Shown here: positions 9,747 through 31,807 of the stretch, piece after piece
Layout: each line of letters opens with the position of its first letter
How positions within the stretch are numbered: the first letter of the stretch is position 1
NCBI RefSeq assembly: GCF_003966335.1
Contig: NZ_CP034549.1
Location: 450,001-482,000, forward strand
Direction of reading: 5' to 3'
Source of the DNA: Nonlabens ponticola
GTDB lineage: Bacteria > Bacteroidota > Bacteroidia > Flavobacteriales > Flavobacteriaceae
DNA: 32,000 nt
Made by a program: the position numbers and the translations under genes
The notes under the pieces: model-generated
The model's database searches: none
What the model was told of the DNA's origin: nothing
Seen by the model: the letters and a program-made list of their open reading frames with translations, nothing else

Positions 9747-10262
9747 ATGCGTGAAGAAATCATCAATAGAGTCGCACAATCAAAACTGCAAACGCTGGAC
9801 TTAGAAGACTACTACGTTCCAGGAACACGCAGCCAGATTGATATTGCACCATGGCTGTTAGATGGTATGGTGTTGGTAGAATCACGCTTTCGCGAAAGCG
9901 TAAAAACCACAGACTTTACTGCATATCAAGATCACCACGTTGCCCTACACTGCAGTACAGATGCGATCATACCGCAATGGGCATGGATGCTGGTTCAAAG
10001 CGAGCTTACTGGTGTAGCCAAAACCGTTATTCACGGCTCGCTGGAAGATCTTGAAATTCACCTTTACAATAAAGCTCTGGAAAATATAGATTTAGAGGCA
10101 TATCAAAATGTTCCTGTAATTGTCAAGGGTTGTAGTAACAAACCAGTGCCTACCAGTGCCTACATTTCCATTACAGGAAAGCTGCAGCAAGTGGCTAGCA
10201 GTCTGATGTTTGGCGAGGCCTGTAGCGCTGTTCCTGTTTACAAAAAACCTAAGGCTCGATAG
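9747..10262 (+). CDS. DUF2480 family protein
   Basis: 171 aa. Recognised from memory of the flavobacterial DUF2480 pattern (LEDYY...HCSTDAI.P.WA.ML...KGCS.KPVP..AY...GEACS.VP). It starts 1 nt after the DUF59 stop codon and contains palindrome copy 3. Confidence 0.65.
   Translation: MREEIINRVAQSKLQTLDLEDYYVPGTRSQIDIAPWLLDGMVLVESRFRESVKTTDFTAYQDHHVALHCSTDAIIPQWAWMLVQSELTGVAKTVIHGSLEDLEIHLYNKALENIDLEAYQNVPVIVKGCSNKPVPTSAYISITGKLQQVASSLMFGEACSAVPVYKKPKAR
9882..9903. repeat. Iterated palindrome copy 3 (TCACGCTTTCGCGAAAGCGTAA, 21/22) inside the DUF2480 CDS
   Basis: Read directly. It is translated as SRFRESV. Confidence 0.95.
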
Positions 10263-10314
10263 CCCACCTGAGCATTTATTAAGCTTATTGCGTGGCAGAC
10301 TAGTTTAAGATTAC

Positions 10315-10322
10315 TAATTTTG
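10315..10322 (+). promoter_or_regulatory. Candidate -7 box (TAATTTTG)
   Basis: Matches TAnnTTTG, 20 nt upstream of the ATG at 10343. Confidence 0.3.
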
Positions 10323-10342
10323 GTTTTCTTAACACTTCAGCC

Positions 10343-11251
10343 ATGAAAAAACTCATCCTACTTTTATTTGTCATTACCGCAGTAACTGCTCAAGCACAAG
10401 ATGCAGAAGAGCAGCCACAAGGCTGGTCTAACGGCGGTATTTTCCAACTGCTATTCAATCAAAGTGCCTTTAATGCCGAGTGGCAAGGTGGTGGTACCTC
10501 AAGTCTTGCAGGCAACCTAGGATTGAATTATGACATCAACTATTTGATGGATCGCACTTCTTGGGATACCAAAATCATTGCAGAATATGGTATCACGCGT
10601 CAGGATGGCGATGAGTTTACTCGCAAGACTAATGACCGTCTAGAACTCAACACCGTTTATGGTTACAAGATCGCTGAAGACAGCGCATGGTCCTATTCAT
10701 TCTTTTTAAATGCGCTGACGCAGTTTACCAAGGGTTACAATTTTGGCGAGGATGAAGATGGTAACGTCACCAGAACCGAGCGTACCAATTTCCTATCGCC
10801 AGGTTACTTTCAGGCCGGTCCTGGCATGTTGTACAAAAAGGGTGATAACCTATCGGTAAACATTGCTCCAGCAACGGCACGATTGATCGTTGTCGATGGT
10901 CAATTTACTGATGGTCCTGATTATGTCGATGGCGCTTATTTTGGTGTAGATGCAGGTGAGACCACTAGATTTGAACTGGGTGCTTCCATCAATGCGCTAT
11001 ACAACTTCCAGATTGCCGAAAATGTGCGCATGGACAACGTGCTACTACTCTACTCTAACTACCTGGACAAGCCAGGAAATATTGACATCAATTACAGCAC
11101 AAACATCAACATGAAAATCAACGAGTGGTTAAGTGCCAACTTGATTTTCCAAGCGATTTATGACGACAACGCCGTTGGTGCGTTCCAGATACGTGAGGTT
11201 TTTGGCTTGGGTCTTAATTACAAGCTAGGCGACGCTAGAGAGGTGCAGTAG
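10343..11251 (+). CDS. Outer-membrane beta-barrel-like protein (DUF3078-like)
   Basis: 302 aa. Signal peptide ending AQAQD, alternating aromatic/hydrophilic pattern. The WSNGGIFQLLFNQSAFNAEWQGGG opening recalls DUF3078. Confidence 0.55.
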   Translation: MKKLILLLFVITAVTAQAQDAEEQPQGWSNGGIFQLLFNQSAFNAEWQGGGTSSLAGNLGLNYDINYLMDRTSWDTKIIAEYGITRQDGDEFTRKTNDRLELNTVYGYKIAEDSAWSYSFFLNALTQFTKGYNFGEDEDGNVTRTERTNFLSPGYFQAGPGMLYKKGDNLSVNIAPATARLIVVDGQFTDGPDYVDGAYFGVDAGETTRFELGASINALYNFQIAENVRMDNVLLLYSNYLDKPGNIDINYSTNINMKINEWLSANLIFQAIYDDNAVGAFQIREVFGLGLNYKLGDAREVQ

Positions 11252-11264
11252 GTTTGTTTTTATT

Positions 11265-11284
11265 TTACTTTCGCGAAAGCGTGA
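11265..11284. repeat. Iterated palindrome copy 4 (degenerate: TTACTTTCGCGAAAGCGTGA)
   Basis: Perfect 12-bp core CTTTCGCGAAAG at 11268-11279. The left arm lacks 2 nt. It lies between convergent genes. Confidence 0.9.
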
Positions 11285-11315
11285 CAAGAAAATTGCTATT
11301 CTGCAACTAGATAAT

Positions 11316-12857
11316 CTATGTCATCGTCTTAATCAATGCAGATAAAATACTCAACCAGATGAAGTTGAAGATGCTTTTTGAGGTGTCGCGTTCTGCCTCG
11401 CCAGTTCCCGTGCGGTAATCGTCGTCGCCGTTGTTGGAATTTTTGGGAACAAATATGTTAGCAATACCGCTGGCAATCTTACTAAAGATATTGTCTTGAT
11501 CTTCCAGCAATTCTACCTTGAACTCATTAAATGACATTTTCATATTGGTGATAGAATTGATGTTGTCACCGTCAATGTCAAAATAGATCTCATCAAGATC
11601 ACCCTTGAAACCTATATTCAAATTAGGTTGCGTGAATCTATTGATATTGCTGGCTGGCAAATTGAAAATATGACCGCTAAACCGAAACGTTTCCTGATCA
11701 TCATTTACATCAAAAGTCCAGTCTGCATGCAGGTCGCCAGCATCTTGAAAAATACCATCGGCCGTGATGTTTGTTTTGACACCTGATTCTTGAGTATTAC
11801 CTACGGTAACCATGGTCAGATCCATTTGAGAAAACTTGATCTCACCTGGTGGCCTGTCGGCTTTCATTTTTTCTTGATAGATGACTTGCGCTTGCTTGAT
11901 GAGTATGGTGTCCATTTGCATGTCAAACGACAGCTTGCGCAGCATCTCGCTATACAGTGGCTTGTAGCTCAAGTCATCTGGTAAGGACTTGCTGCGGTGC
12001 AGGAAAGCATCTGGCTGGAAGATTTCAATACGATCTGCTCTTACCAGTAATTTATCTTCTAGCTGGACATCATAGTTGCGTATTTGCAAACTATCTACAT
12101 CCATCTTGATGTAATCGCGCTCTCTATCTAGTTGCCTATTATACTCGCCTATAGAGTAATCTGGAACGATCCTAAAGTCAATGACATCGATTTGATCTTT
12201 ACCTAATCTAAAGTCACGCACCTGAACGTGCTCTAGGTTATTCAACTTGTAATACAGTGAGTCTGTAGTGATACTTACATCATCATAGGTAACAGGAATC
12301 TTCTTAGCAATTTGTAAACTGTCTGTAGCAAGATTGACGAGGCTCAATTTCCCATCATAAATGGACATGATGAGCGAGTCAGCCTGTTTATTATACATAT
12401 CAAAACTAGAACTACCTATCTCAAATTTCTTGATTAAGATATCCTTATTGATTTCCGCCAGCGGATTTCTCTTAGAACCCGATGAGTCGGCAGGTTTTTG
12501 ATATCTGTTTTGGTAATACTTGACCGCATTCCTATCAACGCGTATCAAATCAATCTTAATCTGATCCTTGAAGAAGTATTCCCAATAATCCACACCTTCA
12601 ATGTCCAGGTAATTAAAATAACCTGAGGTATGAACCTCATCATCCTGCTGATTTGAAAGCGCTACCTGAATACTGTCAATCCTTATACTACCAGACCACA
12701 AACTCATGGAAAGATCTTCATACTTGAGATCCACATTATCTGCCAGACCATTTTCTAGAAAGTTGACAACCTTGCCTTTAATGATGGTGTTTGCAGTAAT
12801 CAAACCGATTACAAAAATGGTAGCTAGTATTCCTATAACAATCAGTAGCTTTTTCAT
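11316..12857 (-). CDS. Hypothetical N-terminally anchored protein (possibly AsmA-like)
   Basis: 513 aa with a single N-terminal TM (LLIVIGILATIFVIGLITA). It starts 9 nt downstream of the hflX stop codon. No firm family call. Confidence 0.6.
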   Translation of the reverse strand: MKKLLIVIGILATIFVIGLITANTIIKGKVVNFLENGLADNVDLKYEDLSMSLWSGSIRIDSIQVALSNQQDDEVHTSGYFNYLDIEGVDYWEYFFKDQIKIDLIRVDRNAVKYYQNRYQKPADSSGSKRNPLAEINKDILIKKFEIGSSSFDMYNKQADSLIMSIYDGKLSLVNLATDSLQIAKKIPVTYDDVSITTDSLYYKLNNLEHVQVRDFRLGKDQIDVIDFRIVPDYSIGEYNRQLDRERDYIKMDVDSLQIRNYDVQLEDKLLVRADRIEIFQPDAFLHRSKSLPDDLSYKPLYSEMLRKLSFDMQMDTILIKQAQVIYQEKMKADRPPGEIKFSQMDLTMVTVGNTQESGVKTNITADGIFQDAGDLHADWTFDVNDDQETFRFSGHIFNLPASNINRFTQPNLNIGFKGDLDEIYFDIDGDNINSITNMKMSFNEFKVELLEDQDNIFSKIASGIANIFVPKNSNNGDDDYRTGTGEAERDTSKSIFNFIWLSILSALIKTMT

Positions 12858-12866
12858 GACATAGAA

Positions 12867-14078
12867 TTATTCTTCTTCACTGATATCTGGATAGAGAAAC
12901 GCATTGTACGGGAATCTGGAAACATGAATTTCGCGCACTTTGTCATAAACCTTCTTGCGGAAGGCTTTCATGTTTTTCTTCTCTAACGCACTTATAAAAA
13001 GCACATCATCACCACTGCGTGACATCCATGTTTTTTTAAGTTCATCCAGCGTGTAGTGTTCCATACCACGCTCAATCATGAGATCAGTCTCGTCATAGTC
13101 AACAGGCGTGTATTGATCAATTTTATTGAACACCATAATCGTTGGTTTATCTATAGCATCAATCTCATCCAGAATCTTGTTTACTGATGCTATGTGATCT
13201 TCAAAAGACTCATGAGAAATATCCACGACATGCAAAAGCAAATCAGATTCACGCACCTCATCCAAGGTTGATTTAAATGACTCTACCAGTTGTGTAGGTA
13301 GTTTGCGTATAAAACCAACAGTGTCTGTCAATAAAAATGGTAGATTACCTACCACGACTTTACGTACGGTAGTATCTAGCGTTGCAAATAGTTTATTCTC
13401 TGCAAACACGTCACTTTTTGAAACCACATTCATGAGCGTACTCTTACCAACATTGGTGTAACCTACTAACGCAACACGCACGAGTTTACCACGATTACCG
13501 CGTTGGGTAGCCATTTGCTTATCGATCTTCTTGAGTTTGCCTTTGAGAAGTGTGATGCGATCGCGCACAATACGTCTATCGGTCTCAATCTCTGTCTCAC
13601 CAGGACCGCGCATACCTATACCACCTTTTTGACGCTCAAGGTGCGTCCATAGTCCAACTAGTCTTGGTAGTAAATATTCGTACTGCGCCAATTCTACCTG
13701 AGTGCGTGCATAACTGGTTTGCGCTCGTTGTGCAAAAATGTCCAGGATCAAATAGGTCCTGTCAATGATCTTGACTTCTAGTAATTTTTCAATATTGCGT
13801 TGTTGCGCTGGTGATAATTCATCATCAAAAATGACTGTATCAATATCACGAGACTTGATATATCCAGCAACTTCTTCCATCTTACCGCTACCTATAAAGG
13901 TTTTAGGATTGGGCTTGGACATCTTCTGGCTAAAACGTTTTTTCACGCTCGCGCCAGCGGTAAAAGCTAGAAACTCTAGCTCATCCATATACTCGTTCAG
14001 TTTTTCCTCGTCTTGTTCCTGAGTAATGACACCTATAAGAATGGCGCTCTCATACTCATGATTTTCAATTTCTAGCAT
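12867..14078 (-). CDS. hflX: GTPase HflX
   Basis: 403 aa. G1 GYTNVGKST, G3 DTVGF, G4 NKID, plus an HflX-type N-terminal domain. Confidence 0.93.
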   Translation of the reverse strand: MLEIENHEYESAILIGVITQEQDEEKLNEYMDELEFLAFTAGASVKKRFSQKMSKPNPKTFIGSGKMEEVAGYIKSRDIDTVIFDDELSPAQQRNIEKLLEVKIIDRTYLILDIFAQRAQTSYARTQVELAQYEYLLPRLVGLWTHLERQKGGIGMRGPGETEIETDRRIVRDRITLLKGKLKKIDKQMATQRGNRGKLVRVALVGYTNVGKSTLMNVVSKSDVFAENKLFATLDTTVRKVVVGNLPFLLTDTVGFIRKLPTQLVESFKSTLDEVRESDLLLHVVDISHESFEDHIASVNKILDEIDAIDKPTIMVFNKIDQYTPVDYDETDLMIERGMEHYTLDELKKTWMSRSGDDVLFISALEKKNMKAFRKKVYDKVREIHVSRFPYNAFLYPDISEEE

Positions 14079-14097
14079 ATAAAAAAGTGGCTTATTT

Positions 14098-14105
14098 CAA
14101 ATATA
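14098..14105 (-). promoter_or_regulatory. Candidate -7 box (TATATTTG) for hflX
   Basis: The reverse complement reads TATATTTG, 19 nt upstream of the hflX ATG. Confidence 0.3.
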
Positions 14106-14154
14106 CCCGATATGCCATAAGGCTAGACAGGCTTTGAGATAAGGTTATGAAATT

Positions 14155-14862: not shown

Positions 14863-15786
14863 ATGTTCCCGATTGCCTTTCATCCCATTTACAAACACCC
14901 GTTACCAGAAGGTCATCGTTTCCCAATGATCAAGTACGAGCTATTACCACAGCAGCTGTTGCTCGAGGGAACCGCTAGTAAGTCAGACTTTTTTGAGCCC
15001 AGCAAACTGGCTGCAGATGTTGATGTACTGCGCGTTCATGATCAAGCATATCTAGATGATTTGAAGAACTTGACGCTTGAGCGTCGTGCTGCGCGCAAAC
15101 TGGGTTTCCCGTTAAGTAAAATACTGGTAGAACGCGAGCTGCGCATCGCTCAAGGAACCATTGAAGGCTGCCTAAAAGCCATGAATTACAAGGTCGCTAT
15201 GAACATCGCTGGCGGCACGCACCATGCCTATACAGATCACGGTGAGGCTTTTTGTTTACTCAACGATCAGGCAATTGCGTCTAGATACTTACAACAACAC
15301 GGTCATGCAGAAAAAATTCTTATAGTAGATCTAGATGTGCATCAAGGAAACGGCACCGCGCAAATCTTCCAAAAAGATGACAGTGTCTTCACCTTTAGTA
15401 TGCATGGCGCTGGTAATTATCCTTTCAAGAAAGAGCAATCTGATCTTGATATTGCGCTGCCAGATGGCACAAATGACGATACCTTTCTGAGTGAACTACG
15501 CAACACGCTACCTGATCTTATTCATGAGCAACGACCCGATTTTATATTCTATCTCGCTGGTGTTGACGTTTTAGCCACTGATAAGCTAGGTAGGTTAGGA
15601 ATGACACTGGATGGTTGTCGTATGCGAGATGAGTTTGCTTTTTCCGCTTTCGCGAAAGCGGAACATAAATCAAAACCATTCATACCAGTACAATGCAGTA
15701 TGGGCGGCGGCTACTCACCTGAGATCAAGGTCATCATCGATGCACACAGCAATACCTACAAGGCAGCGCGAGATATCTTGATTTAG
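14863..15786 (+). CDS. Histone deacetylase family protein (acetoin utilisation/HDAC-like amidohydrolase)
   Basis: 307 aa. GGTHHA, DLDVHQGNGT and MGGGY motifs are typical of the arginase/deacetylase superfamily. Contains palindrome copy 5. Confidence 0.9.
   Translation: MFPIAFHPIYKHPLPEGHRFPMIKYELLPQQLLLEGTASKSDFFEPSKLAADVDVLRVHDQAYLDDLKNLTLERRAARKLGFPLSKILVERELRIAQGTIEGCLKAMNYKVAMNIAGGTHHAYTDHGEAFCLLNDQAIASRYLQQHGHAEKILIVDLDVHQGNGTAQIFQKDDSVFTFSMHGAGNYPFKKEQSDLDIALPDGTNDDTFLSELRNTLPDLIHEQRPDFIFYLAGVDVLATDKLGRLGMTLDGCRMRDEFAFSAFAKAEHKSKPFIPVQCSMGGGYSPEIKVIIDAHSNTYKAARDILI
15642..15663. repeat. Iterated palindrome copy 5 (perfect 22 bp coding variant TTCCGCTTTCGCGAAAGCGGAA)
   Basis: Read directly. 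It lies inside the HDAC-family CDS and is translated SAFAKAE. Confidence 0.95.
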
Positions 15787-16215
15787 TTAGACAATCCATC
15801 GCTTGCGAGAGGCGTGAACGGCAAAAAGTACGAGCACCACATCCATCAAAAGCACCATGTAAAACAAGGTTTGCTCACTCATGCCAACGGCGTCCAGCTC
15901 ACCTGAGCTATACGTATACACACTACTTATCATGATGGATACCAGCGATACCACAGCCAGTGTAACGGCAAACTTCCTGCGAGCCAGCAATAAAACGCAA
16001 GACAACGTGCCAGTAAAAACGGCAAGGCCAAAGTTGAATAGATACCATCCTGGTCGCGCATTGTATAATTCCATTTGTTTCTCGTCGTATGCCTGGGTCA
16101 CTAATTCTGGTGCAAAAGCCTCAGTTAAGAAAGCAGTAAGGCCTATGAGATTCCATAACAATAAAATCACTGAAAGTATCCAGAACCAGACGGCCGGTTT
16201 GATGCGCGTTGTCAT
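15787..16215 (-). CDS. Hypothetical integral membrane protein (about 4 TM)
   Basis: 142 aa with four hydrophobic segments. Its stop codon directly abuts the HDAC stop codon (convergent, 0-nt gap). Confidence 0.6.
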   Translation of the reverse strand: MTTRIKPAVWFWILSVILLLWNLIGLTAFLTEAFAPELVTQAYDEKQMELYNARPGWYLFNFGLAVFTGTLSCVLLLARRKFAVTLAVVSLVSIMISSVYTYSSGELDAVGMSEQTLFYMVLLMDVVLVLFAVHASRKRWIV

Positions 16216-16340
16216 AATGGTGGTTGTTTAAATGACCAAAGTAATAATTTCTTAATGATCAAGGTATCATAAAATTGCGATCAGCGCGTTTTTCTTTGGC
16301 ATTATATTGGTTTATCCTGTTGCCGTAACTTGCGATAATT

Positions 16341-16880
16341 ATGAAATACTTTTTGATTTTGGGATTGGTTTTTGGGTTTCAGCAGTCATTTGCTCAAGGC
16401 AAAGTGAGCGCACAAATGACTGACTCTTGTGAGACTCAAAAACAGGAAAAGCTTACGTTTTTATCTGATGGCTCTTTTCAGGATCCCAGCGCGGTACAGC
16501 GAGAAATGTCAAAACTAAAACCTTGCGGACTCGACGATTATGATATACAATTTTTTGGTAAGATCGATGTGCTTTCCAGCATGCTCAAGAAATTGACTGA
16601 AAGTAAAGACATAAGCATGGTAACCTATGGCGACATGCTGGCAGCAATTGAAAGAGTGAAGAAAAGTCCTAATTACCAACAGTTAAAAAAACTAGCGCTA
16701 ATAAGCCAAAAACTCGCTGCCACTAGAGCCAATATCAGAACCTGGGAACAGGATCGATTACTTTTTCTCGAGCTAGGATCCAGCGAAAAGGTCATGACCA
16801 AAGTCTATGAATACCTGCGACAAAATCCTGACAACACTTTGACCTATCAAGCACTGTTGATGGAGTTGAAAGAGAAATAA
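16341..16880 (+). CDS. Hypothetical secreted protein
   Basis: 179 aa with signal peptide ending SFAQG. No family recognised. Confidence 0.55.
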   Translation: MKYFLILGLVFGFQQSFAQGKVSAQMTDSCETQKQEKLTFLSDGSFQDPSAVQREMSKLKPCGLDDYDIQFFGKIDVLSSMLKKLTESKDISMVTYGDMLAAIERVKKSPNYQQLKKLALISQKLAATRANIRTWEQDRLLFLELGSSEKVMTKVYEYLRQNPDNTLTYQALLMELKEK

Positions 16881-16901
16881 TTATTATTTTCAAGGACACT
16901 T

Positions 16902-18371
16902 ATGCTTTTCAAAATGAGATATACTGTTCTTGCTACTATAATTTTTGCCTTTTTAGTATCATGCGATAAAAAAAACCATAAAACAGAACTGATTGAACAA
17001 ACTGAGATTGTTCTTGAACTTGAGGGCTTTGATATTGATAGTGACAAAAGATTTATTCAAATCAGTATTGAAAACGGACTACAGCCAATCAAGGAACAAC
17101 TAGATATCAATGCTCAGGGCAAAGTAAATTTTAATTTTTTTACCAAAAGAAAAAGAGAGGTGCTGTTCACGTATGAGGGCTATAGATTTAAAGCTTTCGT
17201 ATCTCCTGGAGAGAGCTTTCACGCAATCATTCCATTTGATGAACTAACTGATTATACGTCATACTACCCAAATTTGAAAATTGAGCCAAGCGAGAATTCA
17301 AACTTGAACTATCAAATAATTAAATATGGCAATCATATAGACAGCTTAATCAACACTTCCACCAACGGATTCTCGAATGACGGTAATGTGAACGAATTAG
17401 ATTATGCAAACCTTCGAATACGCGAGATGAATAAGCAAATTGCTGATTTGAAATCGCATTTTAATGAGGTTGATAATTCTGAATTTATTTCGTGGGCAGT
17501 TTCAGAAATAAAAAATTATGCTGGAAACGATTTGAGCTTATATCCTTTTGTTAATGGAATCAATGAAGAGGTACACGCTGATCATACATACTTTAAGTTT
17601 ATCTCGAAGGTTGAAGATGACCTTTCTTATCTAACGCATTCGAAGTTAAATTACTTAGAAAGTTTATCAACTTCTCATATGATTATGAGCAATGTTTCAA
17701 ATAAATATAAAGAGAAGAGAGAAGAATTAGAAAATAAGGGCTTAAACAATTTTCCTATTGCTTACGATAAAATCAAAACATATTTGAATAAAAAGGATGG
17801 AGAGATAATGATGGCAAGCTTATTTATGGATACTTATCGAGTTCCAAAATCATATGCAGACAGTCTCAATGGATTGGTTGATGGTAAGCTTATTAACCAA
17901 GTTCATTCTATTCAAGAATCTGAGAATATAAATATTATAAATGCATTGAAATCTTTCAAGCTCACTGACCAAGAGCGAGAACCACTATTAAAAATATACG
18001 ATAACGCAGATGGAAAAGTCATTTACCATGATTTTTGGTTCTCAACCTGTGCACCATGCATGATGGAAATGCCTTATTATAACAAATTTATTGAATCAGC
18101 TGACGACACGGTAGTTGAATTTGTCTTTTACGGTGTCTACATGGAAGAGGAACAGTGGCAGAAAACAATTGAACAATTTGATTTACAAGGAAGGCACCTT
18201 TTATTAAATAAGAATCAATTAGCCTTCTTCGAAAAATATTTCGATGTATATGGCTATCCTCATCACCATTTTGTTCTCTCAAACGGAACAATCGGTGATA
18301 AAACCAATTTAGGACCAGGCAGCCCGAAAGGACTAAGCGAGCTGATAGAGAATGCTTTAACTATAGAATAA
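16902..18371 (+). CDS. Lipoprotein with C-terminal thioredoxin-fold (TlpA/ResA-like) domain
   Basis: 489 aa. Lipobox FLVSC. WFSTCAPCMMEMP carries a CxxC motif near residue 383. The N-terminal ~370 aa are unrecognised. An alternative ATG lies at 16914. Confidence 0.65.
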   Translation: MLFKMRYTVLATIIFAFLVSCDKKNHKTELIEQTEIVLELEGFDIDSDKRFIQISIENGLQPIKEQLDINAQGKVNFNFFTKRKREVLFTYEGYRFKAFVSPGESFHAIIPFDELTDYTSYYPNLKIEPSENSNLNYQIIKYGNHIDSLINTSTNGFSNDGNVNELDYANLRIREMNKQIADLKSHFNEVDNSEFISWAVSEIKNYAGNDLSLYPFVNGINEEVHADHTYFKFISKVEDDLSYLTHSKLNYLESLSTSHMIMSNVSNKYKEKREELENKGLNNFPIAYDKIKTYLNKKDGEIMMASLFMDTYRVPKSYADSLNGLVDGKLINQVHSIQESENINIINALKSFKLTDQEREPLLKIYDNADGKVIYHDFWFSTCAPCMMEMPYYNKFIESADDTVVEFVFYGVYMEEEQWQKTIEQFDLQGRHLLLNKNQLAFFEKYFDVYGYPHHHFVLSNGTIGDKTNLGPGSPKGLSELIENALTIE

Positions 18372-18411
18372 AATTTCTTGATAAATTCTTGAGAGAATTG
18401 AAACCAACTAT

Positions 18412-18708
18412 ATGAACCACGTTCGTCTCAAATTATGGTTTAGCTATAGAGTGCTCTTTACGGCGGTATTGGTCTCGCTGCCCGTATTAGTCACTTCATC
18501 TTTCTACTTATTCTTTTTGATGATTGCCACAGCTGGATTTTTGATAGGAATCCTAGGTTATCATCAATTCTATAAAGCCGAGAATTATGTGTTTCACAAC
18601 CTAGCCATTTCCCGCTCTAGCCTGTATATTTTTTGTGGCGTTTTTATTTGGATTACTGTTTTGATTTGTTGCGCTTTAACCTTTGCCATAAATCTTATCA
18701 TGTCATGA
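18412..18708 (+). CDS. Small hydrophobic membrane protein (about 3 TM)
   Basis: 98 aa. Its stop overlaps the next ATG (ATGA at 18705-18708). Confidence 0.5.
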   Translation: MNHVRLKLWFSYRVLFTAVLVSLPVLVTSSFYLFFLMIATAGFLIGILGYHQFYKAENYVFHNLAISRSSLYIFCGVFIWITVLICCALTFAINLIMS

Positions 18709-19361
18709 CGCAAACACTCAGCATCCAGAATTTGTGTTTGGATTATGGTAACAATTCTATTCTCAATAATATCGAGTTGAAAATAGAAACCGGTAACATT
18801 TACGGATTATTAGGCCTTAACGGTGCTGGCAAGTCCAGTATGATGAAAGCGCTTTCTGGATTAAATAAAAAAGCTAGTTTTCGAGCACATCACAATGACA
18901 AGGCCATTGACCTCAACAATCATAAGCTGCAAACTGTAGGTTACTTGCCACAAGATCCATTCTTGATGAAGTCGCTTAGTGTGGTTGATACAGTGGCTTA
19001 CTGGTATCCAGATTATGAGATTCAGGATCAAATATTATACGATCCCATGATCCATCAATTTCATAAAACCAAAGTGGGTAAATTATCCATGGGCGAGCAA
19101 CGTTTTCTAGAACTATCGCTTATCATGCAACTACCGCATCCTTTCCTAATGCTGGACGAGCCTTTTTCTGGTCTCGCACCGCTGCAAATTGAACGCAGTC
19201 AAGAATTGATTAAGGTGGGCAGCAAGGATAAAGGAATCGTTATTTCTGATCATTACTACGATAACGTGATCCAGATTACTCATATCAATTGGATGCTGCG
19301 TGACGGTAATCTCAATCTCGTGGATAAAGAGAATGTTGAAACAGCTTATCGTATAAAGTAG
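18705..19361 (+). CDS. ABC transporter ATP-binding protein
   Basis: Taken from the internal ATG at 18705 (MTQTLSIQNL). Walker A GLNGAGKSS, Q-loop LPQD, signature variant LSMGEQR, Walker B FLMLDEP, H-loop SDH. Confidence 0.85.
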   Translation: MTQTLSIQNLCLDYGNNSILNNIELKIETGNIYGLLGLNGAGKSSMMKALSGLNKKASFRAHHNDKAIDLNNHKLQTVGYLPQDPFLMKSLSVVDTVAYWYPDYEIQDQILYDPMIHQFHKTKVGKLSMGEQRFLELSLIMQLPHPFLMLDEPFSGLAPLQIERSQELIKVGSKDKGIVISDHYYDNVIQITHINWMLRDGNLNLVDKENVETAYRIK

Positions 19362-19431
19362 ATCAGTTGTAACATCGTAGTACAATCCTAGTTCCCTTGG
19401 TTGCTTTCCTTCTTAAATTGAAGTTTGGCAA

Positions 19432-20307
19432 TTATCCTGCAGTAATATATTTTTTAGGCGTGGTGCCGTATTTCTTTTTAAACGCACTGATAAAATGGCT
19501 TCCAGTGCTGTAACCTACTTTTAAACCTACTTCGTTTACATTGTGCTGGCCGCTGTCCAGCAATTGGCGTGCATATTCCATCTTGTGATCCAACAGGAAA
19601 CCGTAGACCGTATCGCCATAGACTTCCTTAAAGCCTTCCTTTAATTTCTTGAGCGGTAGCGCAATTTCTTTAGCAAGATCTGCCAGTGATGGTGGATCGG
19701 TCATGCGCTGGATGATGATGTCTTTAGCCATCTTTATTTTGGCCATGTTTTTCTCGTCCACTAGGAATGGGCACGCCTCAATATCAGGATCGTCCTTAGT
19801 ATTAAAATAGAGCGACAGCAATTCATACGCCTTGCCTTTAAAGTACAATCGCTTGATGGCATCATTGAGGTTGTAATTCATTAATTGGTGCAAGGCTACT
19901 GCCATAGACGGCGATACCTTACCATCCACATAATATTTTTTATCTCGGTTGTCATCACTTAAAAAACTCACATGATCTGCGTCAGGAGAGAAAAGCGAGT
20001 GAAATTTTTTGATGGAAACCAGTAATACAACGACCCAGCTATTAGCTGCGATATCTAGATTTACTGGCAGGTCTCGCATGGGATTGTACAGCAAATAGGA
20101 GTTTTGTTCCATGAGCGGCAACTTATAATTGCCCTCGTTAAATGCTAGTTGCACGCTGCCTTTCAAACAAAAGTGGAACTGGATAAAAGTGCGATCTACT
20201 GCGTGTTCAAAATGCTCGTTGTCAGCCGTTTCGTTCTTGATGCGCACCACTTGAAATCCATCTTCCATCTGCGTCACCTCGGCGGCACTTGTAGCGATAT
20301 TTATCAT
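19432..20307 (-). CDS. AraC family transcriptional regulator
   Basis: 291 aa. C-terminal double HTH (LADLAKEIALPLKKLKEGFK...VNEVGLKVGYSTGSHFISAFKKKYGTTPKKY). Confidence 0.88.
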   Translation of the reverse strand: MINIATSAAEVTQMEDGFQVVRIKNETADNEHFEHAVDRTFIQFHFCLKGSVQLAFNEGNYKLPLMEQNSYLLYNPMRDLPVNLDIAANSWVVVLLVSIKKFHSLFSPDADHVSFLSDDNRDKKYYVDGKVSPSMAVALHQLMNYNLNDAIKRLYFKGKAYELLSLYFNTKDDPDIEACPFLVDEKNMAKIKMAKDIIIQRMTDPPSLADLAKEIALPLKKLKEGFKEVYGDTVYGFLLDHKMEYARQLLDSGQHNVNEVGLKVGYSTGSHFISAFKKKYGTTPKKYITAG

Positions 20308-20338: not shown

Positions 20339-20360
20339 TTACGCTTTCGCGAAAGCGTAA
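20339..20360. repeat. Iterated palindrome copy 6 (perfect 22 bp TTACGCTTTCGCGAAAGCGTAA)
   Basis: Read directly. It lies in the divergent araC-like/hemA intergenic region. Confidence 0.95.
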
Positions 20361-20498: not shown

Positions 20499-21755
20499 AT
20501 GACCAGGTCAACGGGCACACCACACAATTTTTACAGCATAGGTATAAGCTACCGCAAGGCAGACGCAGAGACACGTGGCGCCTTTGCGTTGAGCGATACA
20601 GCCATTGTAAATCTGCTCAACGAGGCCAAGGATAACGGCATCAACTCTCTTGCCGTGATCTCTACGTGTAATCGTACAGAGTTATATGGATTTGCCCGCA
20701 GCTCGCAGGATCTAATTAAATTACTTTGCGTGCACTCGCACGGCAGTATTGAGGAGTTTGACAAGATTGCCTATGTGTACGAGAATGAACAGGCGCACCA
20801 GCATCTTTTTAAAGTAGGTACAGGACTGGATAGCCAGATCTTGGGAGATTTTGAGATTATAGGCCAGCTTAAAATAGCCTTTAAAAAGTCTAAAAAGCTA
20901 GGCATGATCAATGCCTACATGGAGCGGTTGTTAAACGCCGTGATCCAGGCCAGCAAGCGCATCAAGACCGAAACGCAATTGAGTAGTGGCGCTACCTCAG
21001 TATCCTTTGCGAGTGTTCAATATATTTTGAACCAGGTTGAGAACGGTGATGATAAACGCATACTACTTTTTGGCACTGGTAAAATAGGTCGTAATACCTG
21101 TGAGAACCTCATCAAGCACACGCATAATAAAAAGATCACGCTCATCAATAGAACAAAAGATCGAGCAGAAAAAATTGCTGGTAAGTTTGATCTTGAAGTA
21201 AAAGATTATGCCCAACTAGAAGAAGAAATTGCTCAAGCCGATATCATGATCGTCGCCACTGGCGCTCACAATCCTACAGTTTCTAAAAACTTGATCGTTA
21301 CCTCAAGGCCTATTCTGATTCTTGACCTATCCATACCTCGCAATGTTGATCCAGATGTGCGCGACCTGGATAATGTCACACTAGTCCACCTAGATGAGCT
21401 GTCCAAAATCACTGATGCCACGCTACAAAACAGGGAACACTTTATACCACAAGCACAAGGCATCATCGAGGAAATCATGACAGACTTTGACACCTGGCGC
21501 GAGTCTAGAAAATTTGCGCCTACCATGCAGGCGCTTAAATCCAGACTATCAGAACTTAAGGAAGCGGAAATCAAAAGCAACCGCACTAAGATCGATAACT
21601 TCAATCAAGAGCAGGCAGATGTGCTGGCAGATCGTATTATCCAGAAAATCGCAGGGCACTTTGCCAACCATTTGCGCAATGAGGACGAGAATACGCAGGA
21701 AGCCATCGAGCTGCTCAATAAGGTCTTCAAGTTAGAAAATGCCGTGCATGAGTAA
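20499..21755 (+). CDS. hemA: Glutamyl-tRNA reductase
   Basis: Active-site ISTCNRTELY and NADPH-site GTGKIGR. Start taken at the ATG at 20499; the track ORF begins at a TTG at 20484. Confidence 0.92.
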   Translation: MTRSTGTPHNFYSIGISYRKADAETRGAFALSDTAIVNLLNEAKDNGINSLAVISTCNRTELYGFARSSQDLIKLLCVHSHGSIEEFDKIAYVYENEQAHQHLFKVGTGLDSQILGDFEIIGQLKIAFKKSKKLGMINAYMERLLNAVIQASKRIKTETQLSSGATSVSFASVQYILNQVENGDDKRILLFGTGKIGRNTCENLIKHTHNKKITLINRTKDRAEKIAGKFDLEVKDYAQLEEEIAQADIMIVATGAHNPTVSKNLIVTSRPILILDLSIPRNVDPDVRDLDNVTLVHLDELSKITDATLQNREHFIPQAQGIIEEIMTDFDTWRESRKFAPTMQALKSRLSELKEAEIKSNRTKIDNFNQEQADVLADRIIQKIAGHFANHLRNEDENTQEAIELLNKVFKLENAVHE

Positions 21756-22695
21756 GCAAATACGAATAGGTACTCGCGACAGCGAGCTGGCCATGTGGCA
21801 AGCGCGCACCGTACAGTCACTACTTGAGGCAAACGGCCATCAAACACTACTCGTTCCCGTAAAATCGCAAGGCGACCTCAATCTAGATGAGCCACTATAT
21901 GAGATGGGCATTACAGGGATTTTTACCAAAACACTTGACGTTGCCCTGGTCAAAGGCGAGATTGATATTGCAGTGCACAGTCTTAAGGATGTGCCTACTC
22001 AATTACCTAAAGGCATGATACAGGCAGCAGTCTTGCCACGTGCAGACCATCGCGACATTCTCGTTTTCAAAAAGAACTTTAATCCAGACGACCAGATGAC
22101 GATCGCTACTGGTAGTTTGCGTCGCAAGTCGCAATGGCTGGATATGTATCCGCAGCACAAGGTGGTTGACCTGCGCGGTAATGTAAACACCAGACTGGCA
22201 AAACTGCAAAATAATGAGGATTGGAACGCAGCGATTTTTGCCAAGGCTGGATTGGAACGAATCAATATCCTGCAGAATTTACGCGGTAATTATGGCCTGG
22301 AATATTCCAATCTGGACAGCTTTATTCCTGCACCTGCACAAGGTGCAATGATGATTGCCTGTATGCAGAAAAATGAAGCAATTGTCAAAGCTACCGCTGC
22401 ATTGAACGATCTGGAAACCCAAAAATGTGTTGATGTAGAGCGCCTGTTCCTGCGTCGTCTAGAAGGTGGTTGTACCGCACCCATAGGTGCTTTTGCAAGT
22501 ATTCACAATGATAGCATGCATTTTCAAGGCTGTTTGTTATCACTGGATGGCTCGCAGCGCATTAGTGCAAATGGTACTATCGACAGTCTGGACTGGAAAG
22601 ATTTAGAAAATTTTGCTTTCGCGAAAGCGGAACACATATTAAACAATGGTGGCACAGAATTAATGACTTCCATTAAACAGTCCTTACAACAGTAG
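21748..22695 (+). CDS. hemC: Hydroxymethylbilane synthase (porphobilinogen deaminase)
   Basis: IRIGTRDSELAMWQA, GNVNTRLAKL and cofactor-Cys LEGGCTAPIGA. The ATG at 21748 overlaps the hemA stop by 8 nt; an alternative ATG lies at 21739. Contains palindrome copy 7. Confidence 0.92.
   Translation: MSKQIRIGTRDSELAMWQARTVQSLLEANGHQTLLVPVKSQGDLNLDEPLYEMGITGIFTKTLDVALVKGEIDIAVHSLKDVPTQLPKGMIQAAVLPRADHRDILVFKKNFNPDDQMTIATGSLRRKSQWLDMYPQHKVVDLRGNVNTRLAKLQNNEDWNAAIFAKAGLERINILQNLRGNYGLEYSNLDSFIPAPAQGAMMIACMQKNEAIVKATAALNDLETQKCVDVERLFLRRLEGGCTAPIGAFASIHNDSMHFQGCLLSLDGSQRISANGTIDSLDWKDLENFAFAKAEHILNNGGTELMTSIKQSLQQ
22611..22632. repeat. Iterated palindrome copy 7 (core GCTTTCGCGAAAGC, 22615-22628) inside hemC
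   Basis: Read directly. It is translated FAFAKAEH. Confidence 0.93.
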
Positions 22696-26684: not shown

Positions 26685-26794
26685 AATTGTAAAGTTGGTA
26701 TAGCAGAGTTTGAGCTGTTATCAATTACAACTTTACCATTTTACATCAGTAAATAGTTACAAAGACTTTATAAAGTTTGATTTGGATCGCTAAA

Positions 26795-28387: not shown

Positions 28388-28464
28388 AAGGCAGTGCTAT
28401 AAGAATATTGGGAAAGATAAAAATAAAGCAACTCATATCGAGACATTGCCTCAAAACAAAATAC

Positions 28465-29220
28465 TTACAATTCTTTATAACTGTCCTGTGGCACCCATGC
28501 CTTCTCACCGTTGGCGATGCGGACTTTGCTCCAGTCCTCATAGGATTCCAGTATCTCAACTTTGGTTCCAGCATGCAGTGTAAAGGTAGATTGAGAGCTG
28601 TTATTAGGTTCACTTCTGGAAATAACCTCTTGATCATAGATAATGGCAGTATTGCTACTGACCATCAAGTCGTTTGACCTGAATGCCGCATAAATCGATA
28701 AACCCATCACGAGTAAAAAGACGATGAAAAACGTGAAAAACAATCGCTTCTTGCCACTTGTTGCGGCGTAATGATATAGCACAAAACACAAAACGGCCAG
28801 TATCGCTAGCATGATGCTCAAGTAAGCCCAACTATCGGTTGACATGGATTTCACCAGAGACGTCATCGCATCTAGAAAGGGATTACCACCTAACGACTCT
28901 ATGCGATCTACCGTCATTTGTTGCGCAAACTTTAAATTGTTCCGTACGTCTTCATTATCTGGATCCATCATCAAGGCTTTTTCATAGTGATAGATGGACG
29001 GTGCGACCTCATTCAACTTATAGTATGTATTACCCAGATTGTAATAGACCTGCACGCTGTGCTTTCCAGATTGCAGGATGCTTGAATACAACTCTTGAGC
29101 CTCTTGATAATTACCATTGGTGTATGCGTTATTAGCTTTCGCGAAAGCTGAATCATCAACATCTTCCTGCGAAAAAAGAAGTGCAGGAATAAGTAGCAAA
29201 ATCATAAACAGGTTTCTCAT
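28465..29220 (-). CDS. batE: TPR plus SH3 domain protein, BatE-like
   Basis: 251 aa. Signal peptide, TPR repeats (YYNLGNTYYKLNE), two TM segments, SH3-like C-terminus (WSKVRIANGEKAWVPQDS). TAATG overlap with batD. Contains palindrome copy 9. Confidence 0.7.
   Translation of the reverse strand: MRNLFMILLLIPALLFSQEDVDDSAFAKANNAYTNGNYQEAQELYSSILQSGKHSVQVYYNLGNTYYKLNEVAPSIYHYEKALMMDPDNEDVRNNLKFAQQMTVDRIESLGGNPFLDAMTSLVKSMSTDSWAYLSIMLAILAVLCFVLYHYAATSGKKRLFFTFFIVFLLVMGLSIYAAFRSNDLMVSSNTAIIYDQEVISRSEPNNSSQSTFTLHAGTKVEILESYEDWSKVRIANGEKAWVPQDSYKEL
29134..29149. repeat. Iterated palindrome copy 9 (AGCTTTCGCGAAAGCT) inside the BatE-like CDS
   Basis: Read directly. On the coding strand it is translated SAFAKAN. 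Confidence 0.93.
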
Positions 29221-30971
29221 TATCTTCTATGAATTTGTTTGTCCAAAGCATTGATCACGCGGCTCGCCTTATCATAATCCTGTTGCATGCTGGTTTCCGA
29301 TGACGGCGCATATCTCGCAAACTCTGCACTGCTAAGTAGTTCCATAAATTCCTTGCGTGGCTCTTCCTGGACTTGTCGTTGTTGCAATAATTGATCGATG
29401 CGCTCCTTGGACATTTCGGCGGTTGGAATGTTCAATTTTGCCTTAAGGAAGTTGTGCAGCGCACGTTCCAGACTTTCATAAAATGCCTCTGGATCATCGA
29501 GTTTGCGGCTCGCATCGCTTAGGTATTTCTTACTTAGCTTATTGGCTTTTTTGATCTTCTGTCCTTTAACATCTGCAGCGGTTTGATCTCTCTTTCTAGC
29601 AACAAGCAAGAAGAGTGGTATCAATAAAAAGCTGCCGCCTAGAATAGTCCAGTAAGCAGTGCTGCCAAAAAATGTTGAACCGTCAATGTCTTCAAGATCG
29701 GTACTGGTAGCGATAAAGGCAAACGTATCACTGGCCGTCAACACATTGGTACCACCTGGCGTGGCAGCCGTAACAGCTGGACCAGTCACCACAATTTCTT
29801 GAGCATCGCTATTGATCGTGACATACTGCTTTTTCTTAGGATCAAAGTAGCTGAATTCCACCGCTGGGATCTCATAAGTACCACCAAATTGCGGCACGAT
29901 GGTGTAATTATCTTCAATAGAACCTGTAATGCTATTCACACTGCGATCGGTATTATCAATGCGCTCTGGTTCAAAGACCTCAAGACTTTGCGGCACCTCA
30001 ATTTCTGGCAACTGCATGAGCTGCAGATTACCTGTTCCTTCTACCACGACTGTTGCATTAAGGCTTTCACCAGCTTCCAACTGTGATCTGGTAACATCTA
30101 CATTAAAATCAAACTGACCTACCGCACCTGTAAAACTCGCTGGCCTGCCATCTTGTGGTAAATCCTTTACATTAAGTGTTCTAGCACCAGCCGTGACACG
30201 TAATTTTTCAAGAACATTTTGTTGACGGCCAAAGAAACTGCGCCTACCTGAAGGCACTAGCACATTCACATCCATCACCAGTGGTTCCATGGTCACGCGA
30301 CCCGTTTTCTGCGGATATAAAATGGCATCACGTAATACAAGATATCGGTAAGGCTCGCCCTTGTAGGTGCCATCACGTACAGGTTCATCGCGTCTATCCT
30401 TAGTCAATGACCAGAAGTCTTCATATTTAGGCGTCTCGACATCTGTCCAGCCGCGTATGCCAGTATTGTTTGAGACATATAATTTATAAACGACCCGTAT
30501 GGCTTCATTGAGGTAAGGTGATGCGTTAGAAACCTCAGCGACTAGATGGACATTGAGTTCTGGTAGCGGTTGCTGGCTGTCCATTTCTCGCGGTCGCTCA
30601 ATAGCTTTGGTCACCTGAATATTGAAAGGATCTGACGTATAAGTTGTGCCTTGATAATCCATGGTAGCACTACCTATGGTCTTAGTACCTGTGCTTTCTG
30701 GCGCTAATATGTAAGTATAGGTTTTGGCAAACGAACCTACTCCATTGATATATCGCTGTGAGACGCCAGTCACTGGTCCAGTTGCTACTTTAAAACCTCT
30801 AAAATCTGGTGGTGTAAAATTGTCACCATCAGCATTCATCTTGAATTCTACTCGCAGCCGTTCATTGAGTGCGATGTTATCTCGTGTTGCGGTTGCTGTA
30901 AACGTTGTTTGCGCAGCGGCCACCGCTGCACTCATCCATAAAAACAAAAAAAGCAGTTGTTTCATTACCAA
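29220..30971 (-). CDS. batD: BatD family protein (oxygen tolerance)
   Basis: 583 aa. Signal peptide, long extracytoplasmic region, single late TM (YWTILGGSFLLIPLFLLVA), cytoplasmic tail. It occupies the bat operon position. Confidence 0.75.
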   Translation of the reverse strand: MVMKQLLFLFLWMSAAVAAAQTTFTATATRDNIALNERLRVEFKMNADGDNFTPPDFRGFKVATGPVTGVSQRYINGVGSFAKTYTYILAPESTGTKTIGSATMDYQGTTYTSDPFNIQVTKAIERPREMDSQQPLPELNVHLVAEVSNASPYLNEAIRVVYKLYVSNNTGIRGWTDVETPKYEDFWSLTKDRRDEPVRDGTYKGEPYRYLVLRDAILYPQKTGRVTMEPLVMDVNVLVPSGRRSFFGRQQNVLEKLRVTAGARTLNVKDLPQDGRPASFTGAVGQFDFNVDVTRSQLEAGESLNATVVVEGTGNLQLMQLPEIEVPQSLEVFEPERIDNTDRSVNSITGSIEDNYTIVPQFGGTYEIPAVEFSYFDPKKKQYVTINSDAQEIVVTGPAVTAATPGGTNVLTASDTFAFIATSTDLEDIDGSTFFGSTAYWTILGGSFLLIPLFLLVARKRDQTAADVKGQKIKKANKLSKKYLSDASRKLDDPEAFYESLERALHNFLKAKLNIPTAEMSKERIDQLLQQRQVQEEPRKEFMELLSSAEFARYAPSSETSMQQDYDKASRVINALDKQIHRR

Positions 30972-31807
30972 TCTTTCTCTGTGCGCACGCCCTTGCCTTT
31001 TTGCTTGCGTGCATTGATTTTATCTTGAATTTTCTGTTCCTCGTTATTCATGGCCTCTAGGATCTGGCGTATTTGCTGCGGTGTCATCTGACCTTCTTGA
31101 CGTGGTCGCTGTTCGTTGCCGCCTTGCTCTTTAGGTTTGCCATCACCGTTGTCACCTTCGCTATTCTCGCCTTTGTCGTTCTCCTTTTCCTTGCCGTCAT
31201 CGCCTTCTTTATCATCACCATCTTTCTCTTTGTCACCATCTCCTTTACCATCAGAATTTTCATCTTGGTCGCCTTCCTTGTTCTGATTCTCGTCCTTGTT
31301 GTCGCCTTGCTCTGGCTGGTCTTTATCATTACCGCCACCACCGCCTTGATTCTCTTCTTCTTGCTTGGCAAGTGCTAGGTTGTATCGCGTCTCATCATCG
31401 GTTGGATCGTTGCGCAGTGCATTTTTGTAGGCCTCAACCGCTTCTACATACTGCTTGTTTTCCATAAAGGTGTTACCCAGATTATGGAAGATTTTATGCT
31501 TTTCTTCTTTAGTTTTAGCGCTCAATGCAGCGTCTCTATAATTCTCCACAGCACTGTAGCCTTTCTTATTGTTATAGTAAACGTTCCCTAGATTATAGCT
31601 AGCCTCAGCACTTGACGGATTGATAGCTTTAGCTTTTCTATAGGCTGCTTCAGCTTCCACAAAGTCGCTGCTTTGAGCTGCAGACTGACCATTGGCCATT
31701 GCGGTCTCATAATCTTGTTGTTGGACTTCTGATAATTGCGCTTTCGCGAAAGCGGAACACATCAAAACCAAAACCAAAGCAACTATGTTTTTCATGTACC
31801 TATTCAT
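30965..31807 (-). CDS. batC: TPR repeat protein, BatC-like, with long acidic low-complexity linker
   Basis: 280 aa. Signal peptide, TPR repeats (YNLGNVYYNNKK, FHNLGNTFMENKQY), G/D/E/K/N-rich tract. An alternative ATG lies at 31795. Contains palindrome copy 10 in the signal-peptide region. Confidence 0.7.
   Translation of the reverse strand: MNRYMKNIVALVLVLMCSAFAKAQLSEVQQQDYETAMANGQSAAQSSDFVEAEAAYRKAKAINPSSAEASYNLGNVYYNNKKGYSAVENYRDAALSAKTKEEKHKIFHNLGNTFMENKQYVEAVEAYKNALRNDPTDDETRYNLALAKQEEENQGGGGGNDKDQPEQGDNKDENQNKEGDQDENSDGKGDGDKEKDGDDKEGDDGKEKENDKGENSEGDNGDGKPKEQGGNEQRPRQEGQMTPQQIRQILEAMNNEEQKIQDKINARKQKGKGVRTEKDW
31736..31757. repeat. Iterated palindrome copy 10 (TTGCGCTTTCGCGAAAGCGGAA; perfect 16 bp at 31739-31754) inside batC
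   Basis: Read directly. On the coding strand it is translated CSAFAKAQ, at the predicted signal-peptide cleavage region. Confidence 0.93.

Follow-up and report, generated by a model that had tools for sequence, protein, structure and literature searches.

A 16-bp palindrome within and between the genes of Nonlabens, Dokdonia and related Flavobacteriaceae, probably a DNA-level recognition motif

The window analyzed here, a 32,000-nucleotide (nt) stretch of the Nonlabens ponticola genome (assembly GCF_003966335.1, contig NZ_CP034549.1, positions 450,001 to 482,000), carries a short palindrome, GCTTTCGCGAAAGC, both within and between its genes. Eight exact copies of this 14-mer and one copy with a single mismatch (at 11267) were found, against an expectation of 0.07, and none of 100 shuffles of the window reached nine copies. 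The copies and the genes that hold or border them are listed below by their positions in the window.

1784–1805, intergenic: copy with the perfect 22-mer TTACGCTTTCGCGAAAGCGTAA, 19 nt past the stop of a Fe-S biosynthesis (iscA-like) gene and upstream of sufB
5518–5539, intergenic: copy with the perfect 22-mer, in the sufC-sufD spacer
9747–10262, plus strand: coding sequence (CDS) of a DUF2480 family protein (Pfam PF10652, E = 4.9e-69)
9882–9903 (core at 9886), plus strand: coding copy in the DUF2480 gene, read as S-RFRES-V, with flanks TCAC..GTAA
11263–11284, intergenic: copy with one mismatch (ACTTTCGCGAAAGC), between the convergent DUF3078 gene and open reading frame (ORF) 11316–12857
14863–15786, plus strand: CDS of a histone deacetylase (HDAC)-family protein (Pfam PF00850, E = 1.3e-50)
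15642–15663 (core at 15646), plus strand: coding copy in the HDAC-family gene, read as S-AFAKA-E, followed by GAA; its flanks TTCC..GGAA make a perfect 22-bp palindrome
20339–20360, intergenic: copy with the perfect 22-mer, in the divergent spacer between an AraC-family gene and hemA
21739–22695, plus strand: CDS of hydroxymethylbilane synthase, HemC (Pfam PF01379, PF03900)
22611–22632 (core at 22615), plus strand: coding copy in hemC, read as F-AFAKA-E, followed by GAA; residues 293–297 of 318, near the C-terminus
28465–29220, minus strand: CDS of a BatE-like TPR and SH3 protein, whose relatives are named BatE
29131–29152 (core at 29135), minus strand: coding copy in the BatE-like gene, read as S-AFAKA-N; only the 14-mer is kept, and GCT AAT follows
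30965–31807, minus strand: CDS of a BatC-like TPR protein, in a bat operon context upstream of BatD
31736–31757 (core at 31740), minus strand: coding copy in the BatC-like gene, read as LMCS-AFAKA-QLSE, with CAA after AFAKA, at the end of an N-terminal hydrophobic segment

The original prediction, made from the letters of the window, had placed five copies inside CDSs, four read as AFAKA and one as RFRES, each with its particular following codon; ORF positions, Pfam matches and the reading of the flanks bear this out. In the DUF2480 gene the copy is CGC TTT CGC GAA AGC GTA AAA (RFRESVK), and the sequence GCGTAA is retained.

About 1 Mb of sequence was sampled in total. It included 8-kb chunks selected for holding a copy, in which gene calls are a crude heuristic, and syntenic loci, which are not independent of one another: the hemC region of six other Nonlabens species, and the DUF2480 region of N. 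agnitus and Dokdonia genika. The motif is common to Nonlabens, Dokdonia, related uncultured Flavobacteriaceae and some of their phages. Among the 120 chunks listed with the 14-mer (one genome per species), 33 are from Dokdonia, 24 from Nonlabens (including strain BBFL7) and 26 from uncultured Flavobacteriaceae; the rest are two low-GC chunks from an 'uncultured bacterium', nine from other Bacteroidota and 26 unrelated ones, mostly high-GC with single hits. Many of the listed Dokdonia and Nonlabens chunks have two or three copies per 8 kb. Unselected sequence, 199 kb from eight species, contains 48 exact copies, and the density is about one copy per 3–4 kb at every locus read; a genome total of about 700 copies (700–1000) is an extrapolation.

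Most IMG/VR matches are attributable to chance, yet a few low-GC viral contigs (L179, L215, L148 and L162) hold two or three copies with typical flanks and host-like spacing. PHROGs matches on these contigs identify portal, major head, protease, terminase and tape-measure genes, some of which contain a copy. No consensus match of at least 17 nt was found in 50,697 cultured phage records, a search whose sensitivity is too low for 14–16-mers. No other over-represented 12-mer that might be a 'dialect' was found in an Arenibacter locus. In the bat locus of Flavobacterium psychrophilum (L328:5486–6001), tandem repeats of about 97 bp that contain the palindrome CACAAAGCTTTGTG lie between batD and batE, with another copy at 698; considered as a dialect, they proved to be only a local array unrelated to the motif of Nonlabens. 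We found no paper containing the 14-mer or the 12-mer in the literature text searched, and no published account of palindromic repeats in Nonlabens or of the highly iterated palindrome (HIP) in Flavobacteria.

In the flavobacterial chunks, the strict core is a 16-bp palindrome, CGCTTTCGCGAAAGCG, since C precedes the 14-mer in 120 of 149 copies and G follows it in 121 of 149. The consensus of unconstrained copies is tGATTAC-GCTTTCGCGAAAGC-GTAATCa, the tGATTAC and GTAATCa extensions being those of intergenic copies; the perfect 22-bp palindrome TTACGCTTTCGCGAAAGCGTAA occurs in the window at the intergenic copies 1788, 5522 and 20343. The motif with its flanks reads as follows.

TGATTACGCTTTCGCGAAAGCGTAATCA

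As the original prediction stated, the core is free of stop codons in every frame. Beyond the palindrome, about 18 nt upstream are G+T-rich and C-depleted, and about 18 nt downstream are A+C-rich and G-depleted, so that the skew is strand-symmetric; it is seen around intergenic copies and around coding copies in all three frames. The preferred bases at the -2/+2 positions vary by genus and species, Dokdonia using TAC and Nonlabens overall TCC, TTC or TAC.

Exact copies dominate. In 820 kb there are 181 exact copies, 19 with one mismatch and 15 with two (1.3 expected by chance for the last class), and none of the 15 two-mismatch copies is a symmetric, compensated variant. The commonest one-mismatch variants in the flavobacterial chunks are C>T (mirror G>A) at the central CpGs, for example GCTTTTGCGAAAGC, seen three times, and hint at compatibility with cytosine methylation. 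Intergenic copies would form a 9-bp stem (-7.3 kcal/mol as DNA), and in them the positions ±2 covary (28 complementary pairs versus 19 expected), a covariation that is gone in coding copies. No mirrored pairing of the flanks was detected beyond ±2, and a more extended hairpin was rejected: the flanks of a copy form 5.76 pairs with their own partners versus 5.95 with the flanks of other copies, with minimum free energies of -11.25 and about -11.2. The lack of compensated variants and of an extended stem indicates that the sequence itself is recognized, and not merely its ability to fold. A half-site role for GCGAAAGC, a very stable DNA mini-hairpin, was likewise rejected, as it occurs only 11 times outside exact palindromes in 158 kb of Nonlabens sequence (the window and L121–L126), mostly in degenerate copies. 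In the same 158 kb, TTCGAA occurs 7 times versus about 51 expected from base composition, with no such shortage of TCGCGA or CGCG; these genomes thus seem to avoid an AsuII/BstBI-type restriction site. Perhaps by coincidence, the center of the palindrome, TTCGCGAA, equals TTCGAA with an inserted CG.

Copies persist at orthologous sites in up to seven Nonlabens species, whose proteins are 50–85% identical, and in Dokdonia. Coding copies are shared in the HDAC-family gene (4 of 4), in BatC (5 of 5) and in BatE (three exact and one with a synonymous mismatch), and the DUF2480 copy is retained in all named Nonlabens DUF2480 proteins. Intergenic sites are shared as well, upstream of hemA, behind the DUF3078 gene and, in both Nonlabens and Dokdonia, upstream of sufB. 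The hemA-upstream core is exact in six of seven Nonlabens species and has two mismatches in N. sp. Ci31 (L125:8001), while its flanks vary. Copies orthologous to that between the iscA-like gene and sufB lie in the same spacer of N. agnitus (L246:2456) and D. genika (L245:1830), although the remaining spacer cannot be aligned. After the DUF3078 gene, N. agnitus (L121:556) and N. antarcticus (L122:1319) have exact orthologues, from which it follows that the one-mismatch copy of the window (11263–11284) is decaying.

Within genes, conservation reaches the codons. Across four host genes, a single codon is used by every species at only 89 of 564 degenerate columns with an invariant amino acid; the five palindrome codons, however, are all invariant in the HDAC-family gene (four species) and in BatC (five species). 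In BatC the 18 nt GCT TTC GCG AAA GCG CAA are identical in five Nonlabens species, and the flanks diverge. As the palindrome codons are frozen while other codons for invariant residues vary, the constraint lies on the DNA.

The copies are also spaced with unusual regularity. The coefficient of variation of the intervals, about 0.9 under random placement, is 0.36 in the window (P = 0.007), 0.24 in a Dokdonia locus (P = 0.002) and 0.41 for 21 intervals from four loosely related loci (P < 1e-4). In the 8-kb chunks, 2 of 124 copies have a neighbor within 1 kb versus 21–28% under a Poisson model, and 24 of 80 have one within 3 kb versus 50–63%. Between the rare close pairs no transposase was found, the only genes there being those of DUF2461, OmpA and an OEP protein. 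In the region of sufC-sufD, N. ponticola has lost a copy that N. agnitus and D. genika carry in a Lactamase_B gene, and has a new one 1.2 kb downstream in the sufC-sufD spacer, where the other two have none; similarly, D. genika lacks the DUF2480 copy and has one 0.5 kb upstream. Copies are thus lost and replaced nearby, a turnover that keeps the spacing.

Three side observations concern these spacers and gaps. The sufC-sufD spacer of N. agnitus (L246:6103–6206) is longer, with inverted flanks TTTGATGATTT...AAATCATCA around a different central hairpin, GCTGTCTACCAACAGC, and may be a disrupted or replaced copy of the palindrome. In Nonlabens sp. 105-3Z (L123:1–7000), an island with integrase, HTH_17 and ParD-ParE genes stands in place of the syntenic genes, and about 8.5 kb there have 0 copies; a copy-free island would fit a slow build-up of copies in resident DNA, but is alone not significant (P ~0.13). 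Within the window, positions 15800–20300 form the second-longest palindrome-free stretch (4.7 kb), which coincides with the lowest G+C (0.355 at 16–18 kb) and with ORFs that lack Pfam matches; the gene content there varies among Nonlabens species.

Intergenic sequence is enriched about 4-fold, with 17 of the 48 copies lying in the 12% that is non-coding (P = 2e-5, from loci that are not fully independent). The other 31 lie inside CDSs, as do about 70% of 154 copies in another set. A terminator or other RNA element was considered and rejected: the distribution over tandem, divergent and convergent spacers is 31/13/3 as compared with 70/20/10% by length, there is no T-run, and no Rfam match was obtained.

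Among 99 confidently coding copies, 61 are in the AFAKA frame, 22 in the xFRES frame and 16 in the LSRK frame, the shares expected from codon usage being 0.66, 0.32 and 0.02, respectively. Frame use is non-random and tracks codon usage for the two main frames. The original prediction had named random frame use, with stop-containing copies included, as a result that would speak against insertion and exaptation; the frames are not random, and copies in CDSs are stop-free by definition. The number of copies is far higher: about 99 exact copies are seen in 184k codons, where codon usage alone would give 0.0016, and the rare codons TTC and GCG are used. The signal rewrites five codons and biases about six on each side, toward V/G/F/L/D-type codons before it and Q/T/K/P/N-type codons after it. 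About one-fifth of the AFAKA copies, including that of BatC in the window, lie 33–135 nt past the start after a hydrophobic stretch (for example, LFVSAFAKAQQ), and by inspection, not by a predictor, they appear to form the AxA end of a signal peptide.

It had also been claimed that coding copies lose exactly the base that would make a stop codon in the intergenic consensus. Beyond the window this holds in that the T of GTAA is usually replaced and the AA kept: the codon after AFAKA (n = 61) is GAA in 18 copies and CAA in 13 (together 51%), and TAY in nine (15%). It does not hold for BatE, where the AAT encodes a conserved Asn (AAY in all Nonlabens, N in outgroups) and is not a modified GTAA. 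As a signal, stop avoidance is in part tautological, since a copy in a CDS cannot hold an in-frame stop; moreover, the mirror position changes too, although a change there has no bearing on a stop, being TCC in 15 and TAC in four of the 61 AFAKA-frame copies, and TAC has become TCC in the window copies 15646 and 31740. In none of the 61 is the flanking TAA the gene's own stop. Selection against the stop was correctly invoked, but it is an ordinary effect, to be expected where purifying selection acts on the host protein, which would be why GCG TAA becomes GCG GAA, CAA or TAY in the AFAKA frame and GCGTAA is kept in the RFRES frame.

Alignment of the host proteins with their orthologues reveals how coding copies arose. 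In DUF2480, F48 and R49 are invariant in the family, and outgroups have [DE]FR[EDKQ]x in the same columns with no gap (D. genika, GAG TTT AGA AAA AGC). In BatE, outgroups have xF[AEDQ]K[AG]N with no gap; xFxK[AG]N is the ancestral form, and other codons, CAT TTT GCT AAA GCT, specify HFAKAN in N. ulvanivorans. No record of Salegentibacter BatE or of N. xiamenensis HemC turned up for the comparison. The hemC palindrome is present in this register only in N. ponticola and N. agnitus; N. antarcticus (GCA TTT GAT CAG GCA) and N. sp. 105-3Z (GCG AAC CAG CAA GCA) use unrelated codons without any change of length, the palindrome of N. sp. Ci31 and N. ulvanivorans is found 6 nt upstream in another register, and the outgroups Christiangramia and Flavobacterium have LGKFCAQE-like residues with no gap at the site. 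For BatC, Arenibacter has SFIHAQ at the signal-peptide end with no gap, and this copy, too, probably arose by substitution onto existing codons. Three further genes differ between species without an indel: Lactamase_B (EAFAKA in N. agnitus and D. genika, EQFVDE in N. ponticola), SufS (DAFAKAL in D. genika, DAYHDLL in Nonlabens) and a sulfate permease with TLSRK (ACG CTT TCG CGA AAG in N. agnitus, ACA CTA TCA CGC AAG in N. ponticola).

Only the HDAC-family gene shows an indel. Six extra codons (18 nt), TCC GCT TTC GCG AAA GCG, are present in all Nonlabens, including five metagenomic relatives (6 of 6), and are absent from Dokdonia ponticola (L024, 66% identical) and about 75 further HDAC orthologues, in which the length is fixed. 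This copy is the best candidate for a true 18-nt insertion, although the placement of the gap is ambiguous (AFAK plus PF is possible). D. ponticola has a copy about 0.5 kb from the HDAC site, in the neighboring gene. A metagenomic orthologue (L298, 65% identical) has at the same position, with no insertion, ACG TTT CGC GAA AGC GGA (TFRESG), a 12-of-14 match to the palindrome in another frame, where its relatives have TGC CAT GAC TCG. The view that copies were inserted and then tolerated or exapted therefore fails for four of the five coding copies of the window (DUF2480, BatE, hemC and BatC), which align with gapless orthologues, and the alternative put forward beside it, a process directed by sequence that works on codons already present, is the better supported of the two.

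We regard the palindrome as probably a recognition motif at the level of DNA, of the class formed by the uptake signal sequence (USS), the DNA uptake sequence (DUS) and HIP1, and neither a peptide motif nor a conventional mobile element. Selection or biased fixation would keep the number near one copy every few kb, and coding copies would arise mainly by substitution where codons nearly match (xFAKx, xFREx, LSRK and AxA signal-peptide ends), purifying selection on the host protein setting which frame and flank bases survive. A symmetric, dimeric protein might read the motif as a duplex, with a footprint or action of about 18 bp on each side. As to its role, a self-DNA tag for uptake and recombination ranks first, a speculative choice that stands well short of an even chance, and a binding site that organizes the nucleoid or chromosome is the next most likely. 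Still more tentatively, the palindrome could be the first uptake-signal-like or self-recognition tag in Bacteroidota, consisting of a 16-bp dyad with flanks of about 18 bp and a dimeric reader in uptake, recombination or chromosome handling.

The resemblance to the USS of Pasteurellaceae and the DUS of Neisseriaceae is broad. These, too, have hundreds to thousands of copies, about one per 1–4 kb (the total for the present motif being extrapolated); they are clade-restricted with flank 'dialects', as are the Dokdonia and Nonlabens preferences described above; they are both genic and intergenic with intergenic enrichment, keep their positions across species, and have weaker compositional flanks around a strict core. 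Coding USS follow codon preference in their choice of frame and lie at poorly conserved residues (PMC2817400), and their origin by substitution in codon-usage frames at tolerant residues is matched here, with the HDAC insertion as the exception. HIP1 of cyanobacteria (GCGATCGC) is likewise a hyper-abundant palindrome in and outside genes with an unresolved function (PMC5861425, PMC4390886), spread by substitution and conserved beyond codon constraint; its sites are conserved by selection and quasi-periodic (PMC5861425). The present motif differs from it in sequence (CGCTTTCGCGAAAGCG versus GCGATCGC), in the phylum of its hosts (Flavobacteriaceae as opposed to cyanobacteria), in length (16–22 bp versus 8), in a density about tenfold lower and in a regularity on the kb scale, as opposed to a period of 10–90 kb. 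HIP1-type palindromes have orphan methyltransferases that recognize sub-sites inside them, for which the C>T variants at the central CpG give no more than a hint here. With USS and DUS, competent cells favor the uptake of motif-bearing DNA by way of a cognate receptor. HIP1 is reported to raise transformation efficiency (bioRxiv 10.1101/2024.09.10.611283), and own DNA is preferred in transformation by a competent member of the Flavobacteriaceae in which no DUS was found at k <= 10 (PMC7965970).

Several points weigh against this reading. The USS and DUS are asymmetric and often occur as inverted pairs that serve as terminators, whereas the present motif is perfectly palindromic, and its copies stand singly, avoid one another strictly, form no inverted pairs or terminators and show no excess in convergent spacers; and 16 bp is far longer than HIP1. 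Unlike USS/DUS, the motif occurs in phage structural genes, and these copies would also fit a host-wide mutational or repair bias. Nor does substitution account for what looks like a true insertion in the HDAC-family gene. Finally, the count of the LSRK frame is possibly inflated by miscalls in the heuristic annotation of the 8-kb chunks.

If the palindrome is a functional tag, it would provide a handle on gene exchange and chromosome organization in the abundant marine Flavobacteriaceae, for which genetics are poor and, to our knowledge, no uptake signal has been reported. It would also be a second, independent system, beside HIP1 and USS/DUS, in which the coexistence of a DNA signal with protein coding can be studied. 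Possible uses include the flagging of recently acquired DNA, the assignment of phages to hosts and the design of better transformation constructs.

Of the alternatives, the one that survives best concerns function only and makes the palindrome the binding or loading site of a nucleoid-structuring, segregation or topoisomerase-type protein; we regard it as rather unlikely, at about one chance in a handful. A perfect palindrome of 14–16 bp that is free of orientation, regularly spaced and conserved in position would suit such a site, and the wide footprint on the flanks suggests wrapping or melting of DNA. The sites of ParB (parS), Noc (the Noc-binding site, NBS) and SlmA (the SlmA-binding site, SBS) are perfect palindromes of 12–16 bp, often intragenic and read by dimeric proteins. 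Such sites number from a few to about 100 per genome (1–100 for parS, NBS and SBS) and are regionally clustered, whereas the present motif, extrapolated to 700–1000 copies, is one to two orders of magnitude more numerous and unclustered; its sequence is unrelated, with 6 of 16 positions matching parS. The restriction of a housekeeping site to two genera would also be left unexplained. The periodicity of HIP1 has been interpreted in terms of chromosome biology as well (PMC5861425).

It is improbable that the palindrome is a functionless by-product of sequence-biased mutation or repair, akin to very short patch (VSP) repair or linked to methylation, which would keep regenerating it. Such a process would be consistent with the origin of copies by substitution and with their presence in phages replicating in these hosts; the C>T variants at the central CpGs (GCTTTTGCGAAAGC) would fit cytosine methylation, and the avoidance of TTCGAA (7 versus 51) implies restriction-modification pressure in these genomes. 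It gives no account, however, of the mutual avoidance, of one copy per few kb, of the 4-fold intergenic enrichment or of the 18-nt flank skew, and exact copies far outnumber near-misses. We know of no repair bias specific for 14–16 bases.

Slightly less probable still is a tiny mobile palindromic element that inserts in frame and is then tolerated or exapted, in the manner of the Rickettsia palindromic elements or of miniature inverted-repeat transposable elements. The six extra codons of the HDAC-family gene, which resemble an in-frame insertion of a Rickettsia element adding residues to a loop, argue for it, as does a D. genika copy between sufE and the next gene, which lies in a spacer of about 77 nt absent in Nonlabens. 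But in seven other coding families the palindrome lies without an indel over homologous, often similar residues, and in hemC it was gained in two registers, 6 nt from each other. Moreover, there are no terminal repeats, target duplication or nearby transposase, and copies are old and orthologous rather than polymorphic. Rickettsia palindromic elements are 100–150 bp long and cause indels in many genes, in contrast to a unit of 16–18 nt here and no indel in seven of the eight informative genes.

We think it very unlikely that the palindrome is a hairpin like the repetitive extragenic palindromic (REP) sequences, served on single-stranded DNA by a REP-associated tyrosine transposase (RAYT) or an IS200/IS605-type Y1 transposase. 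Both are short, hairpin-capable palindromes between genes, with a conserved 5' tetranucleotide and hundreds of copies; REPs have GTAG 5' of the hairpin and IS608 cleaves at TTAC, and in the present motif TTAC is conserved 5' of the hairpin on both strands. The 9-bp stem and the covariation at ±2 in intergenic copies point the same way. Yet REPs are extragenic by definition, and about 65–70% of the present copies are inside genes; they are single, without the doublets or bacterial interspersed mosaic elements (BIMEs) that REPs form, perfect and specific in sequence, and show no compensated double variants, whereas in REPs it is the structure rather than the sequence that is conserved. The covariation is absent in coding copies and explicable by species-specific flank preferences, and in the loci read no RAYT was found, nor any Y1 transposase near close pairs.

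Selection on the peptide, AFAKA or RFRES, instead of on the DNA may be dismissed: although in about one-fifth of AFAKA copies the peptide would be useful, as the AxA end of an N-terminal hydrophobic segment, the 14-mer occurs in three frames and between genes, its synonymous sites are frozen with rare codons in use, and orthologues without the palindrome use other codons for the same residues.

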